Positions 2,580 to 39,115 of a stretch of 40,849 bases of DNA are shown one piece after another. A model generated the notes under the pieces. It did not search any database, had not been told where the DNA came from, and worked only from the letters and a program-made list of their open reading frames with translations. Within the stretch, counting starts at the first letter, position 1, and every line of letters begins with the position of its first letter. A program made the position numbers and the translations under genes. The stretch is from the IMG/VR virus record IMGVR_UViG_2563366924_000005, positions 1-40,849 of that record; one strand, 5' to 3'. The DNA is from a virus. Its lineage: Duplodnaviria; Heunggongvirae; Uroviricota; Caudoviricetes.

Positions 2580-4475
2580 TTACAATATTCTAACTTCACC
2601 GTATACGCTCAATATTTTATCAGGAACCAGATCGCTTCTACCTTTAATTTGAACATATGGCAAATCATCAGTATTTAATTCCAAATTTGTAGAAAAGAAT
2701 ACTCCACCACCACTCTGGATTGAGCTACTAAATTCAAAGAACTCACCAGACATGAATAACCCTTTCAGTCTTACACTTCCAGACTGATGATTTACAACTA
2801 TGTTCACACTTAATGTCTCAACTGAATTATGAATTGCAGATGTCTTTAGTAACAATGTTGAATTACCAAAATCTATCCACTCAAACCCATATTCACCATC
2901 AAGACCACCTGAAAATTTACCAGCATAATTACCAGTTAATATAGAGTTGACGACATTTCCGCTAACTCCATTTATTTTCTTCCTCTGGTCTATTCTGTGA
3001 TTAACTCCAAAATAACCTTCAGGAACAATTAAGTCTCTGGTACTAGACGCAACAGAGTCATAAAATTCAACCCTTACACCATGACCATAAGTGTTTTCCT
3101 TTGTTTTTAATATCCTCCCAATGTTATCAGCATTTTCAAACCTGTTACTTCCAGAAATAAATATTTCACTAGCTGGCGTATCTGCATACCCAACAAAAAA
3201 CATTGAGTCCTTAGAGATAAAATTTACATAGTTATTTTCAAGTAATGATGAAAATACATAACTACCAAAATAAACACCAACATCATCGACATTTTCGATG
3301 TATGAGTTACATAATTTGAAATCATAAACAGCGGCATTAAATTGTATGCCAACAGTGCAACCTTCAACAGAAATACCATCCATTACAAGCGATGTTACAG
3401 GCCCATCAAATCTATATTGCATTTGGGCATTTGTTGCAATCAGTCTTGTAAATTCGTTTAAATTATGCGCCCCGCTAAAAACAAATCTATCACCCAAATA
3501 TTCCTGCGGATATTCAAAAACAATATTATCCAATTTAAGGTAGTAGTTATTGTGTGAGTGAATACCAAATGATGAGCAATTGCAAAATATATTTTTAATC
3601 TCACACCCATGATGCCAGTCTTGAATCCTTAGGCAGGCTGAACTCAACCTATTATTATCTGTGCTTGATATAATAGAGAAATTTGATAATGAGATATACT
3701 TACTGTAATGTGAATCATCACTAGAACCAAAGTTGCTTACAAGCACACCGTTATCATTATAATATCCACTCTCAAAAAGAGTAATATCTGAAAGCATGTT
3801 GAATACGCAACCGCATCCATCTATAATTTTTTGCTTTGCCCTCTCAAATGTTTCATCGAAATTTTGAGGTATAATTAATGTTTTTTTTATGCCATATACC
3901 TTACCTGGAACTCCAATTATTTTTTTGTTTCCATTAAATGCCTCTTTTATTCCTGCTTGAATGTAGTCAGAGCAGTCAATATTTGATGTGTTCCCATTAA
4001 TGTCTGGCGGTATGAAATCATCAAAAGAAAGTGTTTCCCTTAATTTAATTAATGATGTCGTGCCTTTTGCATTGTTTTCACTCTGAATGAATCCTATATA
4101 TTTTGAACCATCGTTTCCAGACAATCTTTCTTCAAGCTGATCAGGGTCATACTTCAGCACATTAGGAAAATAGAATTGCTGCGCTCCATACGCATCGTAT
4201 ACAGCCATAGAATGGCCTTGCACAGTTACGAATTTGGCAATCTGTCCGTTATATACCGGATACCCGCCAGCGTTAATGATGATTGGTTGCGAAACAGGAA
4301 CGTGAGAGCCGTCTTCGTTCTCTACATAAACCTGAATCTGGTTTTCAGGATTTACCGGGTCAGTGTCAATTTTACCGATATAAATTTTGCCATTGGCTAC
4401 GGCTTTAAAAGAACGCGCCATAGTGAAGAGTTGCGAAGGCATCGATACGATCACATTGGCTGTAATGTCTGTCAT
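2580..4475 (-). CDS. Tailspike protein: P22 gp9-type N-terminal head-binding domain fused to a divergent receptor-binding/depolymerase domain
   Basis: N-terminus [47 protein letters not shown]...[15 protein letters not shown]...NVLKYDPDQ closely matches the recalled P22 tailspike N-terminus; the remaining ~500 residues are unrelated to P22 gp9 and the DNA is visibly AT-rich. Confidence 0.85.
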
Positions 4476-4575
4476 TTAATTTGCTCCAGATACAATGAAT
4501 CGCCGCAGCGTGGCCACGGTGAATTTTGGGCATAAAAAAACCCAGCCGAAGCTGGGTCGTTGCGTTGGTTATCTG

Positions 4576-5454
4576 TCAGTAGTTATGTACTGAAGGAGGT
4601 AATTCTTTATTCTTAAGTCTCATCCATGCGGAAAGATTCGTTGGTCCGTCTGGCTCATTGATATCAACATCTCGTGTGTGATTGATTAAAACGTCTCTCG
4701 CCATTCCGATAACATACGAGAATTCATGACCGTAGTCGTAGCATCTGCCGGAATAGTTCGATTGAATTTGTTTCAGCGCCGGATACAGTTCGCGGAATAA
4801 TGCCTGTGAGCGGTTAGCATAATCCCATAGCCATACAAGGCTGTTTGCTTCTTTTGCAGAAAGCTCGTTGACTTTCCTCTCTTGTTTGCCGATGAACTCT
4901 CCTTCAAGCACTACCCTGTGGATGTACTCTACGGCCAGCGGGATTTGTTCAATTGAAAGTTCATCAATGCTGTCAATACCAAAACGCTGATGAACCATAT
5001 TGTATGCATCGTCATAGCGAAGTCCTTTCTTTCCTACCAGCATGTTTACTGCATCGCGTAGCGGCGTTCTTTCCTCAACAGTGGTTTTCTTGCCTTTCAC
5101 ATACTCGCCATGTTTGCGAATTGAAGGTAGAACTTCTGCTGTTACCCACTTGCGGAATTTGTGCGGGACCGAACCTTTATTGACAGCATCGCGGCAGCGC
5201 AGAACCAATGTATACATACCTGATTCGCTAACAATGCTTAGATTCTGCTCACCACCAAGGGTGTAACTTAAAGTTACTCCCTTTTCATCGTCATCAAGTG
5301 CAGTAAGCGCCTTGCGTGAGTTAGTCAGGGTTAAAGCATCACAAACATCTTTTGCTACAAACCACGGCTCACCGCATTTGTTGATGACGCGGATTTCACT
5401 GTCGCCGAATTTGAAGATGGTGAAATCGTTTTGTGCCTTTGCTATACTTTTCAT
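4576..5454 (-). CDS. ant: Antirepressor Ant (Bro-N/AntA N-terminal domain)
   Basis: ORF 4576-5520; likely start at [11 protein letters not shown] (ATG 5454) with AGGAAA ribosome-binding site; [30 protein letters not shown] is a Bro-N-type motif; immI position next to arc and tailspike as in P22. Confidence 0.75.
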
Positions 5455-5516
5455 GTCAATATTTCCTAATCCGATTTGTTGATACCGAAGCCCTGACTGT
5501 TCCCGCAGTTGGGGCT

Positions 5517-5690
5517 TCAACTTTTTGCTAGATTACCTTTAGAACTATCCCGCCTTAAACTATCCACTAACCGCATTACCATCTCGGTATTTATTGAGCG
5601 ACCATTTTCTTTCGCTGACTTCTCGATTGCTAACTTAACCTCTAATGGGATGCGCAAAGGGTACTTTGGTGCGTCTGACTTGACTATCAT
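5517..5690 (-). CDS. arc: Arc-like ribbon-helix-helix repressor
   Basis: 57 aa from ATG at 5690 with GGAGG 5 nt upstream; ...[29 protein letters not shown] resembles P22 Arc (..REVLDLVRKVAEENGRSVNSEIYQRV..); directly upstream of ant. Confidence 0.75.
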
Positions 5691-5708
5691 ATTACCTCCA
5701 ATCAATTT

Positions 5709-5725
5709 GGTATAACCGTTATACC
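5709..5725. promoter_or_regulatory. 17-bp perfect palindrome (ggtataac-c-gttatacc) in the divergent arc/mnt control region; candidate Mnt/Arc operator
   Basis: Seen directly between the arc start (5690) and mnt start (5779); P22 Mnt is known to bind a 17-bp palindromic operator at the equivalent place. Confidence 0.35.
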
Positions 5726-5778
5726 ATTGTGATCGCAGTGATGCAATAGTAATATCACCAAAATGCTATGGAGGTGGT

Positions 5779-6015
5779 ATGTCACGCGAAGAGCCGCAAA
5801 TAAATATCAGGATTTCCAAAGAGTTAAAGGCAAAGGTTAAAGCCAGGGCGCAACATAACAAGCGTTCCATGAATGCTGAAATAATACAGATTATCGAAGA
5901 TGCTGTTTGTGGTAGATCGCTTAATAGCAATGAATTTGCTCAGAAAGAGGCTGACAAATTCAGGGATGCGCTGATTGAAACACTGAAAACCATGTATGGT
6001 AAGGATGCAAAATGA
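5779..6015 (+). CDS. mnt: Mnt-like ribbon-helix-helix maintenance repressor
   Basis: 78 aa; MSREEPQINIRISKELKAKVKARAQHNKRSMNAEIIQIIEDA resembles P22 Mnt (MARDDPHFNFRMPMEVREKLKFRAEANGRSMNSELLQIVQDA); strong GGAGGTGG ribosome-binding site; divergent from arc. Confidence 0.8.
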   Translation: MSREEPQINIRISKELKAKVKARAQHNKRSMNAEIIQIIEDAVCGRSLNSNEFAQKEADKFRDALIETLKTMYGKDAK

Positions 6016-6221
6016 ATAAAAAACAGTTTATTAAGTCAAAAACATCAAGCAAGGAAGAGCTAGAGAAAGAGCTAAACTCCCTGAAATATGCTCTGTGTCT
6101 GGTTTACTCAAGACTGCCAATGGAAGATAAAAACGCTATTTACAATGAAATGATTAGCAGCCTTGATTTTAACGATAGAGACCTAGCATCCCACCTCAAC
6201 AGCTTCCGCGTCCCTGAGTAA
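6012..6221 (+). CDS. Hypothetical protein (69 aa), translationally coupled to mnt
   Basis: ATGA start/stop overlap with mnt; AT-rich; no recognisable motif. Confidence 0.4.
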   Translation: MNKKQFIKSKTSSKEELEKELNSLKYALCLVYSRLPMEDKNAIYNEMISSLDFNDRDLASHLNSFRVPE

Positions 6222-6381
6222 TTCTGTTGCGGATTTGCTTCTTGCGGTGGTTTAGGCTGGAGAGCTTGGCTTCTGCTTCCGATATTTGCGCATCCAGATC
6301 TTTAAGTTCAAGATCTGAAAGTCGCTGGTCAAGCAGGGTTTGATTCAACTCGATGTTGTTCAGGCGTTCTTCTATGGTCAT
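6196..6381 (-). CDS. Hypothetical coiled-coil protein (61 aa)
   Basis: ORF with AAGGT ribosome-binding site upstream of ATG 6381; heptad-like sequence LSDLELKDLDAQISEAEAKLSSL; may be a shadow ORF. Confidence 0.25.
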   Translation of the reverse strand: MTIEERLNNIELNQTLLDQRLSDLELKDLDAQISEAEAKLSSLNHRKKQIRNRITQGRGSC

Positions 6382-14018: not shown

Positions 14019-14480
14019 TCACGTACTCGGATCATCTTTCTCGATGTAAAACCGATTCCACGTAAACGCGCTTTTGTTACCACTACCGCGAGGCATGTCA
14101 TTTCGCCGCTCAAGTGGTGGTATTTTGGTTAAAGCGATACAGATTGTCTGATATGCACTGTCAGCAGCGGTAAGGAGAGCGTCTGACGGCTGAATGACGT
14201 TATCCATGCACACTTGCACAGCGAGTTTCAAAGCGACGCCATCATTTGCCCATGCAGGGATACCTGAATCATCGTCAGGTAACGGCATGATGCCGTTTTC
14301 TGTATCAGCAAACTGATATCCAAGCTCGATACCTTTAGCCTGCCATGCTGCCATCATGTCTTCGAGGTCATTAATGGCATCTTCAATTGCCTGAGGGTCA
14401 GCATCTGTCAACGTGGCATTGGAATACAGCCCGGCTTTTCGTAAAGCCTTAAGAACGAGATCACCCTTCGTTTTCGCCAT
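14019..14480 (-). CDS. Head-to-tail adaptor, P22 gp4 homolog
   Basis: 153 aa in the gp4 slot downstream of coat. Confidence 0.65.
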   Translation of the reverse strand: MAKTKGDLVLKALRKAGLYSNATLTDADPQAIEDAINDLEDMMAAWQAKGIELGYQFADTENGIMPLPDDDSGIPAWANDGVALKLAVQVCMDNVIQPSDALLTAADSAYQTICIALTKIPPLERRNDMPRGSGNKSAFTWNRFYIEKDDPST

Positions 14481-16955: not shown

Positions 16956-19172
16956 TTACTGCTGTGGTTGTTGCTGAGTTGATTTTTGCAGGATGCTGCT
17001 GATGTCCATGCGCTGCGCATGGCCCTGTGCCTGACTTTTCAGGACAAGCTCTGCATCAGCACGGGCATTGTCTCCTTGCTGTTGCTGGAACTGTCCGAGC
17101 AGTTTCAGAGCCTCGCGGATATCAGATTTCTGCTGGCTATCAGCAGATGCGAGGATTTTCACAACGTTTGCCGCTGCAACCTGAGCATCAGTCTGTGCCT
17201 GGAATGCTTTAACCTGAATGGCTGCCTGCTCGTTCTGCGCTTTCTGCAATTCAGCCTGACCAGCAAGAAGCTGACCTTGCGCAGCAACCATAGCCGGATC
17301 TGGCTGACTGGCCTGTTGTTGTTTCGCCTGCTCAACCATCTGCTGTTCTTCTGGCGTTCTCGGCTTGATAACTCCAGACAGAAGCAACTGATTGCGGTTG
17401 TATTCTTTAAGGTCGTCCATCCCTTCGCCGTCCATATTGTCGAGGATCATCGACGATACAAGGTCGTGTTTCGGCGTTCCGGGCGGGATAAGTGCCAGCA
17501 TGGAAAGTAACGACTTAACCGTTGCGTCACGGCGAGTAGCGAACGACTGACCGACATCGACAGTCACTTCATAGTTACCCTGCGAAAGGTCGTTAAGCGC
17601 GATAACCTGCCCTGTCTGACGGTCAACCACTTCACCAGTCATCAGCGCCACGTCATCGCTGCCGTCCTCATTAACGATACGCATCGGCGTATCACTGCCA
17701 TAGACCTCACGCGCCATAGAAAGCCACACAACGCCAGCGCGGCGCATGGATTTAGCCATGTTGTCCATGTAGATATAGGACTGCGTGTCCATCCTGTTAA
17801 AAATGCTATCAACGGTATCGGTGGCGACGTTGCTCGGCATGTTCTCAAACTGCGACGCACCTGTAATTTGCTGAATAGCCGTTCCGGTGTACTGCAATAG
17901 CCCGGCAAGAGCTGGAGGCATTTGTGTCGGAGGCGTATAACTGCTGACCTGAGCCTGCGCTGTAATATCTCCGTTTTTGTTTTTCAGACTGACCATCGGC
18001 AGGAACGCCGGGCGCTTTTTGTTTCGCTCCGCCCAATGAGTGGCGAGAGTACCAGGAATCATGTCAACATCAACTACAGGAATGCCATCACCGCCAGCCT
18101 GAGTAGCGTTATCTGCAATCATGGAAACCATCAGGTTCTCAAGACGCTGTGCATCCATCGCTTTTGCTGCGTGGCCTTCAATTCGCTCCTGATTATCAAC
18201 AAATGAGCGACGCCCATATACCGGGATGAGAGGAATATGTTCACCCGGAATACGCTTCGGTTCTTCCAGCCATTCAGCGCCAGACAGAAGACCGCAATAA
18301 ACGCGGCGCTTCTTCACCGTTCGCTCGCCAATCAGTTCGAATGCACCATCGGTCAGCTCGTCGACAATATCTTTGATTTGCTCTTCATCATAGATTGCCG
18401 TTTCTCCGCTAACAGGGTTGCGCCACGCCGTGAGCTTCACCTTCTCTATGCGGACTTCATAGTAGCGACCAACATAGATAGCATCAGGAGTTGACCAGTC
18501 ATATTGAGTGCCAGTGTCATCACGAGAAAGACTTGCAGCGATGGAATCAGGGTATTCAGCTTCGAACGCTTTAGGCGTCATGGAGAACATTTCCATAGCC
18601 CACATAGCATCAGAGCGGTCATATTGCTTGCTGTCCTGATCGAAGAAGACGCATGTCGCTGGGTCGTAAACAGGAAGAAGGCTGATGCGTCGCTGCTCGT
18701 TACTTGGGTCCATTTCATCTTCGTAATCGGCACACATGCGGAAACAACCGAATCCGCCCGTTACAGCATCATCAAATGCGTTATCACACGCTTCGCCACC
18801 TGATGTTTCCTGATAGTCAGCGCGGAATTTGCCGTTCATCTTTTCGGCTAACGCTTCCGATGCCTTATCGTCCTTCGGCCTGAATTTAACGCTGATGCGA
18901 TTCTGTCGATACTCGCCAATGATGCGATCACATTCACGGGCAATCTTATTCAATTCAAAACGCGGATAATGCTCGAACCTGCCTTCATCAAATGAGTAAC
19001 CAGCGTTTGTGCTGCCTTCCCACTGTGCGCCGGACACCCGGACGAAACGTTGAGCCTCAATAATCTGCTCACGCATATCCTGCGTTGCTGACCAGGCATT
19101 ATCAAAGTTGCACAGCACCTTGCGATGCCAGTCAGTCATCTTTCTATCATCAGCCATCATCCAACTCCGCAA
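16956..19172 (-). CDS. Portal protein, P22 gp1 homolog
   Basis: 738 aa; motifs GEHIPLIPVYG, PAMVAAQGQLLAGQAELQKAQNEQ and ARADAELVLKSQAQGHAQRMDISSILQ match recalled P22 portal ([61 protein letters not shown]). Confidence 0.85.
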   Translation of the reverse strand: MRSWMMADDRKMTDWHRKVLCNFDNAWSATQDMREQIIEAQRFVRVSGAQWEGSTNAGYSFDEGRFEHYPRFELNKIARECDRIIGEYRQNRISVKFRPKDDKASEALAEKMNGKFRADYQETSGGEACDNAFDDAVTGGFGCFRMCADYEDEMDPSNEQRRISLLPVYDPATCVFFDQDSKQYDRSDAMWAMEMFSMTPKAFEAEYPDSIAASLSRDDTGTQYDWSTPDAIYVGRYYEVRIEKVKLTAWRNPVSGETAIYDEEQIKDIVDELTDGAFELIGERTVKKRRVYCGLLSGAEWLEEPKRIPGEHIPLIPVYGRRSFVDNQERIEGHAAKAMDAQRLENLMVSMIADNATQAGGDGIPVVDVDMIPGTLATHWAERNKKRPAFLPMVSLKNKNGDITAQAQVSSYTPPTQMPPALAGLLQYTGTAIQQITGASQFENMPSNVATDTVDSIFNRMDTQSYIYMDNMAKSMRRAGVVWLSMAREVYGSDTPMRIVNEDGSDDVALMTGEVVDRQTGQVIALNDLSQGNYEVTVDVGQSFATRRDATVKSLLSMLALIPPGTPKHDLVSSMILDNMDGEGMDDLKEYNRNQLLLSGVIKPRTPEEQQMVEQAKQQQASQPDPAMVAAQGQLLAGQAELQKAQNEQAAIQVKAFQAQTDAQVAAANVVKILASADSQQKSDIREALKLLGQFQQQQGDNARADAELVLKSQAQGHAQRMDISSILQKSTQQQPQQ

Positions 19173-38717: not shown

Positions 38718-39115
38718 GCAACATCGACAAACAGGCGTTAAATCAAGAAAAAATTGAATGGCTCAATAAATTAGCTGATATGGAGTATTGCAAAAGCAAT
38801 CCTGGGCATTGGCTGATGAGCTTGAAGGATACAAACATGCTTGCGAAATTGGCTCTGCGCTCAGTGGCGCTGCTGGCATCGCTGGAAGCCGCAGAGAAGC
38901 GAATCGCTGAACTGGAAGCGAATAAGTGTAAGCCAGTGATGTTTATTGATGGCGATATATCGCCTGCTGACGCTGACAAGTTGGCTGCTGTAATTCGCGA
39001 GTTCAACGAAGAAACAGAAACCCCTGCGGCTCGAATGGCGCGGATTATTCGCGAGAACCCGCATCCAACTAACATGTGCGATATGCCAGCCGCTGGCATC
39101 GGTAAGGGGGAGTGA
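38714..39115 (+). CDS. Hypothetical protein (133 aa)
   Basis: ORF, translationally coupled. Confidence 0.4.
   Translation: MSNIDKQALNQEKIEWLNKLADMEYCKSNPGHWLMSLKDTNMLAKLALRSVALLASLEAAEKRIAELEANKCKPVMFIDGDISPADADKLAAVIREFNEETETPAARMARIIRENPHPTNMCDMPAAGIGKGE

Follow-up and report, generated by a model that had tools for sequence, protein, structure and literature searches.

The window, here the whole 40,849-nucleotide stretch of DNA that was analysed, represents an E. coli prophage or phage of the P22-like (Lederbergvirus) type, and its closest records are Lederbergvirus phages. Between its divergent arc and mnt genes lies a perfect palindrome at the place where P22 carries its Mnt operator. 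The locus raises the questions of which of the two repressors this element serves and whether its sequence reflects an operator specificity distinct from that of P22.

Organisation and distribution of the immI module

A full P22-type immI module, comprising ant, the sar RNA, arc and the divergent mnt, was identified around the control region that the first-pass annotation had designated as immunity I (Table 1). The arc gene begins with an ATG at 5690 (minus strand) and mnt with one at 5779 (plus strand), and the palindrome lies in between, as that annotation had described. The module adjoins a tailspike gene with a P22-type N-terminal domain (2580-4475, minus strand), as in the P22-like late operon. 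Only ~100 bp separate the tailspike gene from ant in the window (4476-4575), at the place where Escherichia phage Kapi1 has an HNH endonuclease gene (L001, 966-1466). At the DNA level, ant is about 90-97% identical to its counterparts in P22-like phages. The sar antisense RNA spans the arc-ant junction and the Psar-like site is the sole sigma-70 consensus match of a promoter scan covering 5400-6300; judging from the sequence, the antisense layer of ant control is intact in this immI class.

Both repressor genes encode Arc-family ribbon-helix-helix proteins, with identities of 38% between the arc homologue and P22 Arc and 36% between the mnt homologue and P22 Mnt. The best solved relative of the mnt product is P22 Mnt itself (1mnt_A, E 8.4e-9; residues 3-72 aligned). 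The gene is preceded by a GGAGG Shine-Dalgarno sequence at 5770-5774. Mnt identity within the window's class goes down to 58%; residues 1-11 (MSREEPQINIR) are invariant, and in the part C-terminal to the ribbon-helix-helix domain, the tetramerisation region of P22 Mnt, the invariant residues include F61, A64, L65, E67, T68 and M72. L69 and K70 are common to the Mnt proteins of the window, P22 and Salmonella phage Emek. The 69-residue open reading frame that follows mnt had no match in a Pfam search and is probably co-transcribed with mnt and expressed in the lysogen.

Table 1. Features of the immI region of the window and the evidence for each.
Feature	Coordinates	Strand	Evidence
Psar-like promoter, GTGAAA-17-TATACT, TG before -10	5420-5448	+	consensus match only; just upstream of sar
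ant (antirepressor), 292 aa from ATG at 5454	4576-5454	-	Pfam Bro-N 5.9e-20, P22_AR_C 1.1e-28
sar antisense RNA	5456-5522	+	Rfam RF00262, 71.6 bits against a gathering score of 43, E 2e-14, full-length
sar terminator-like hairpin, T run after	5487-5518	+	terminator scan
arc homologue, 57 aa, recognition strand P-K-Y-P-L-R-I-P	5517-5690	-	Pfam Arc 2e-12
Dyad, proposed Mnt operator	5708-5726, centre 5717		existence, shuffles, P22 position, footprint, co-variation with Mnt strand, kept symmetry
Proposed Pant extended -10, TGG TATAAC, in dyad right arm	5718-5726	-	sequence and conservation
Proposed Pmnt -35, TTGTGA	5727-5732	+	offset from dyad centre (10 bp) as for the annotated P22 Pmnt -35, TTGAGA
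Candidate Arc operator, 21-bp partial dyad GTGATGCAATAGTAATATCAC	5738-5758, centre 5748		6/10 symmetric pairs; low confidence
Proposed Pant -35, TTGCAT	5741-5746	-	TGCAA (5742-5746) invariant, variable bases around
Proposed Pmnt -10, TAATAT	5750-5755	+	17 bp from -35; TAnTAT conserved in family
mnt homologue, 78 aa, N terminus MSREEPQINIR	5779-6015	+	Pfam Arc 5.7e-13
69-aa open reading frame, overlaps mnt stop codon (ATGA)	6012-6221	+	homologous frames annotated in Kapi1 and Emek

Of 5,426 complete E. coli genomes, 53 contain a match to the 499-bp arc-mnt segment; at least 80% of the segment is covered in 44, and many of the matches are 100% identical, strain 124 (NZ_CP048344) being one of the strains with an identical module. 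The same class is present in Klebsiella phage ST899-OXA48phi17.1 and Cronobacter phage ES2. The immI regions of P22-like phages and prophages have been treated as "ant moron" types (Villafane et al. 2008, PMC2629481). The closest sequenced phage is Kapi1 (MT813197), which presents 97.8% DNA identity over ant-arc-mnt but differs from the window by the loss of 65 bp (window 5680-5744; about 2680 in L001). This deletion, also observed in one IMG/VR contig (L052 and L214), takes out the dyad in its entirety along with the start and ribosome-binding site of arc, the Pmnt -35 and the core of Pant, such that ant should be permanently silent and mnt left without its -35. The Kapi1 paper does not discuss the immI region. 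The Kapi1 proteins are annotated merely as "Arc family regulatory protein", and public records use "Arc family DNA-binding protein".

A perfect 19-bp dyad in the arc-mnt spacer

The palindrome GGTATAACCGTTATACC of the first-pass annotation was found exactly at 5709-5725; its 17 bp do lie inside a perfect dyad, although the true length is 19 bp rather than 17. The complete element, TGGTATAAC-C-GTTATACCA, comprises two 9-bp arms around C5717, lies within the 88-bp arc-mnt spacer (5691-5778) and is the longest perfect palindrome of the 40.8-kb window. Shuffled 40.8-kb windows contain ~1.45 palindromes with arms of at least 8 bp, and the presence of a palindrome somewhere in the window is thus unremarkable. 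Three more perfect palindromes with 8-bp arms were located at 14281-14297, 17006-17022 and 39083-39099, a number near that expectation. When the 88-bp spacer was shuffled 100,000 times, arms of at least 9 bp were obtained in 0.1% and arms of at least 8 bp in 0.4% of cases, giving a chance of ~0.001 for a perfect palindrome of the dyad's length within the spacer. A search of the window allowing up to 3 mismatches revealed no second copy.

Alignment of the spacers of the window's class revealed four conserved blocks: the arc ribosome-binding site, TTT followed by the dyad and CCATTGT, TGCAA, and GTAnTATnAC. The family alignment also shows conservation of the arc start codon ATG and of GGAGG at 5695-5699. 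The second block is conserved as TTT..TATAAC-N-GTTATACCATTGT, and positions 5732-5737 are free to vary. Two otherwise near-identical prophages (L045/L205 and L049/L209) carry the substitution A5723G in the right arm (GTTATGCC), which breaks the dyad and puts C in place of the first T in the -10 proposed for Pant; a natural promoter-down or operator variant is a possible reading.

Position relative to the P22 operator and the proposed overlapping promoters

The fully annotated P22-pbi record (AF527608) was used as the P22 reference. In P22, 17 bases separate the arc start from the operator AGGTCCAC-C-GTGGACCT; next come ATTGAGA, with the Pmnt -35 inside it, the 21-bp Arc operator and the Pant -35. 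The corresponding gap in the window is 18 bases and leads to GGTATAAC-C-GTTATACC and then ATTGTGA. Order and distances therefore agree as far as the Pmnt -35, and the dyad occupies the site of the P22 Mnt operator between the arc start and that hexamer, as had been proposed. The dyad centre lies 10 bp from the TTG of the Pmnt -35 in both phages and ~25 bp from the arc start codon, and in the window mnt begins 53 bp to the right of the dyad. The two loci also share the divergent mnt/arc-ant layout, a homologous ribbon-helix-helix repressor (1MNT), sar RNA and ant downstream, and the AC-N-GT core of the operator. The half-sites are different, AGGTCCAC in P22 and TGGTATAAC in the window. The sequence AGGTCCAC-N-GTGGACCT is absent from the window spacer, where only the AC-N-GT core is common and the best match to the P22 Mnt operator reaches only 8/17, in agreement with the earlier claim of a different sequence. 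The recognition strands of the two Mnt proteins differ as well, H-F-N-F-R in P22 and Q-I-N-I-R in the window.

The proposed Pmnt, TTGTGA-17-TAATAT, parallels TTGAGA-17-TATCAT of P22. On the opposite strand, 12/12 family sequences retain the right arm together with its 17-bp spacing from TTGCA, with minus-strand TTGCA(T/C/G) conserved at 5746-5741 and the intervening spacer sequence variable, the pattern expected of a promoter. The consensus promoter scan of 5400-6300 reported neither the proposed Pant nor the proposed Pmnt, the Pant -10 being missed because the last base of its hexamer is C. Pant would start near 5711, with a 21-nt leader ahead of arc; the predicted start of Pmnt is near 5762. 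The window operator thus appears to coincide with the extended -10 of Pant (TGGTATAAC), in contrast with the P22 operator, which covers +1 to +17. The P22 Pant -35, TTGACA to the right of the Arc operator, is without counterpart in the window, as are the P22 Pant hexamers generally. A Pant arranged as in P22 would have its -35 to the right of the second element and its -10 at 5732-5737; it was rejected, as these bases are variable or without hexamers.

No clear conserved dyad for Arc was found in the spacer alignment of the class. The partial dyad at 5738-5758, whose symmetry is tied for second best in the spacer, is a low-confidence candidate: its outer GT and AC are conserved and are not accounted for by promoter hexamers, its centre is 31 bp from the dyad centre, as compared with 28 bp for the P22 Arc operator, and it scores only 5.7 bits on a matrix of the Arc-position elements of other classes. 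GTGAT repeats in 5729-5742 were considered as an Arc site and rejected, since they are not conserved in relatives. Arc-position elements vary widely from one immI class to another despite a constant Arc strand PQFNLRW (L094, L120, L072, Emek and P22); examples are TAGAGTGCTTCTA in P22 (L003, 3745-3765), TATCACCGTTATA in L094 and TACTACCGTTCTA in Emek (L002, 2448-2468). Several Arc-position elements have the AC-N-GT core typical of Mnt-position dyads.

These features suggest how the region may work. By analogy with P22, the Mnt homologue would probably be a tetramer placing one ribbon-helix-helix dimer on each half-site. In the lysogen, Mnt bound to the dyad would cover the -10 and start of Pant, the promoter of arc and ant, and would block RNA polymerase there, so that the antirepressor would not be made. 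Pant and Pmnt would overlap back to back as in P22, and blocking Pant should consequently favour Pmnt. Arc on the candidate site would lie over the Pmnt -10 as well as the Pant -35, in keeping with P22, where Arc represses both promoters.

Dyads and Mnt recognition strands across immI classes

Approximately 100 loci encoding Mnt relatives were gathered from IMG/VR, metagenomes, genomes and GenBank phages. A dyad N6-AC-N-GT-N6 followed by (A/C)TTG is present in each of the 40 distinct immI-type control regions, and in every one (40/40) the dyad centre is 10 bp from the TTG of the -35. Each Mnt class has its own dyad at the equivalent place, with the AC-N-GT core constant. The strand PHFNFR (P22 type) is accompanied by the arm GGTCCAC in 22/26 distinct loci, PQFKLR by GAACCAC in 6/7, and PQIN[IV]R, the window's class, by (G/A)(G/A)TATAAC in 14/16, the window itself pairing PQINIR with GTATAAC. 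PQFNVR is accompanied by TAGTAC at one locus (Emek) and PQLRIR, which occurs in other phage contexts, by GCCCCAC at many loci. The loci off the strand-arm pattern are those in which the arc side is deleted or replaced.

The symmetry of the element is retained as its sequence changes. Six of the eight symmetric position pairs are altered on both sides across classes, and strictly complementary cells amount to 82%, as compared with 21-26% for slid-partner controls. The Arc strand PQFNLRW is unchanged across four of the dyad types. As read from these alignments, the arms change in concert on both sides and track the Mnt recognition strand. The association of strand and operator could partly reflect linkage rather than function, because operator and mnt are only 60 bp apart and are co-inherited.

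The Emek module shares the architecture of the window and has its own dyad, GATAGTAC-C-GTACTACT, with the Mnt strand QFNVR and a 15/21 match to the window dyad. It differs in the half-site bases at positions 3-4 from the centre; its Arc (PQFNLRW) and its Pant, with TTGACA to the right of the second element, are both of the P22 type. A large Mnt-like group (MSREDPQLRIRLP...; L129-L136 and L227-L283, IMG/VR and metagenome loci) sits in other phage contexts and displays two to three upstream GCCCCAC-N-GTGGGGC-like dyads interleaved with TTGACA-like hexamers; the AC-N-GT logic thus extends to a wider family.

Probable assignment of the dyad to Mnt

The dyad is interpreted as the operator of the Mnt-like repressor encoded to its right, with a probability of roughly three in four. 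P22 Mnt reportedly contacts DNA, in the work of Knight and Sauer, through Arg2, His6, Asn8 and Arg10, and position 6 is viewed as the specificity-determining "master residue" of Mnt. The window Mnt keeps Arg, Asn and Arg at these contact positions and has Gln in place of His6 (MSREEPQINIR). From these residues, the window Mnt is a homologue with a different recognition strand and would not have the P22 specificity. The three DNA-facing strand positions thus read Gln-Asn-Arg, as in P22 Arc, where these side chains make base contacts at three strand positions, and not His-Asn-Arg as in P22 Mnt. Elements assigned to Gln-Asn-Arg proteins mostly have TA at half-site positions 5-6, in the forms TAGA, TATC, TATA and TAGT, and this is so for P22 Arc, L094 Arc, Emek Mnt and the window Mnt. 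The exception is the PQFNFR/PQFNLR Mnt classes, whose right arms are GACC. His-Asn-Arg is paired with GTCC and Gln-Lys-Arg with AACC. The Arc-operator-like look of the window dyad is therefore attributed to the presence of the P22 Arc triad in the window Mnt.

It is conceivable, if unlikely, that the dyad serves the Arc homologue, or both repressors, with Mnt binding elsewhere, for example at 5738-5758. On the matrix of Arc-position elements from other classes the dyad scores 10.9 bits, the top of the spacer and rank 3 of 81,658 window positions; its score on the Mnt-position matrix, in which CCAC sites predominate, is poor. Agreement with the P22 Arc operator amounts to 13/21 bases and with the P22 Mnt operator to 8/17. 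The window half-site (A/T)TGGTATAAC agrees with the half-sites of P22 Arc, ATGATAGAAG and ATAGTAGAGT, at 7/10 and 6/10. The half-site TATAAC is identical to the right half of the L094 Arc-position element. The match to the L120 Arc-position element is 15/21, equal to that of Emek, the best Mnt-position dyad, and similarity alone cannot assign the protein, given the opposite results on the two matrices. Recombinants pairing the window's Arc type with another Mnt type were not found in IMG/VR scans or by tblastn of the phage collection; all matches carry one coupled Arc/Mnt/dyad set, and within this class co-variation consequently cannot separate the two proteins.

Other observations argue for Mnt as the owner. 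The dyad lies where the Mnt operator is located in P22 and in all other classes, and the element found there changes with Mnt even among classes sharing the Arc strand PQFNLRW. The likeness to Arc sites is explained by the Gln-Asn-Arg of Mnt, whereas the window Arc carries the triad Lys-Pro/Asn-Arg: its strand in the class is PKY[P/N][L/M]RIP, and the Pro/Asn position varies while the dyad stays fixed. Mnt-position dyads are near-perfect palindromes like that of the window, whereas Arc-position elements are only partly symmetric; the window dyad also differs from the P22 Arc operator in its AC-N-GT core and its location at the Mnt-operator position. The window Mnt, for its part, differs from P22 Arc in its longer, Mnt-like C-terminal part (78 residues, with the 1mnt alignment extending through residue 72). 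The first-pass annotation had ascribed a distinct operator specificity to Arc and Mnt together. The part concerning Mnt is supported, the strand QINIR as opposed to HFNFR co-varying with the operator, but the joint assignment does not, the dyad being attributed to Mnt. A distinct specificity of Arc may be inferred from its strand, KYPLRI in the window as compared with QFNLRW.

Two further explanations dispense with a repressor. The palindrome might be mainly a promoter feature, consisting of back-to-back extended -10 elements (TGGTATAAC on each strand) with symmetry as a by-product. TGnTATAAC does occur on both strands alike, and among relatives conservation is stricter in the right arm, the one that Pant would use, than in the left. 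A rightward promoter using the left arm would nevertheless be without a usable -35, the symmetry of the left arm is retained in most relatives, and the GC-rich dyads GGTCCAC and GAACCAC at the equivalent place cannot be -10 elements, which makes this explanation very improbable. Even slighter is the likelihood that the palindrome is an RNA or DNA hairpin (a terminator, a processing site or a recombination site) or a product of chance. The sequence folds on either strand with -10 to -15 kcal/mol (z -2.7 and -4.7), but this is true of any palindrome; there is no T run 3' of it on either strand, the terminator scan gave no match there and, given the predicted starts, no arc or mnt mRNA would include the two arms together. 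A role as terminator or hairpin was rejected on the terminator scan and folding results, and chance is opposed by the probability of ~0.001 and by the conservation and symmetric replacement of the element across classes.

Implications for immI control

The dyad, read as the Mnt operator, is most likely an ordinary regulatory element of a well-known kind with a recognition sequence so far uncharacterised. Operator classes of immI were not described in the literature examined. What is new is an immI module that appears to have a Mnt-operator specificity of its own, along with a Pant that is somewhat rearranged; the type of system itself is known. One more specificity class, fairly widespread, is added to a textbook repressor-operator system, and the understanding of how immI works is left unchanged. 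Prophages of this class are predicted not to cross-react with P22-type immI control.

The classes together constitute a natural table of recognition-strand residues against operator bases and a possible source of orthogonal small repressors. Tentatively, one scaffold may underlie a series of natural immI modules with at least five or six repressor-operator specificities, each distinct from the others. In the window's member of such a series, Mnt would have acquired the Gln-Asn-Arg triad of P22 Arc and, with it, an Arc-like TATA-box half-site. This half-site would at once be the extended -10 of the very promoter under repression, and repressor and sigma factor would compete for the same bases. 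If this is true, the immI modules would amount to a natural, ready-made code of recognition by ribbon-helix-helix proteins and would supply a set of orthogonal pairs of repressor and operator.
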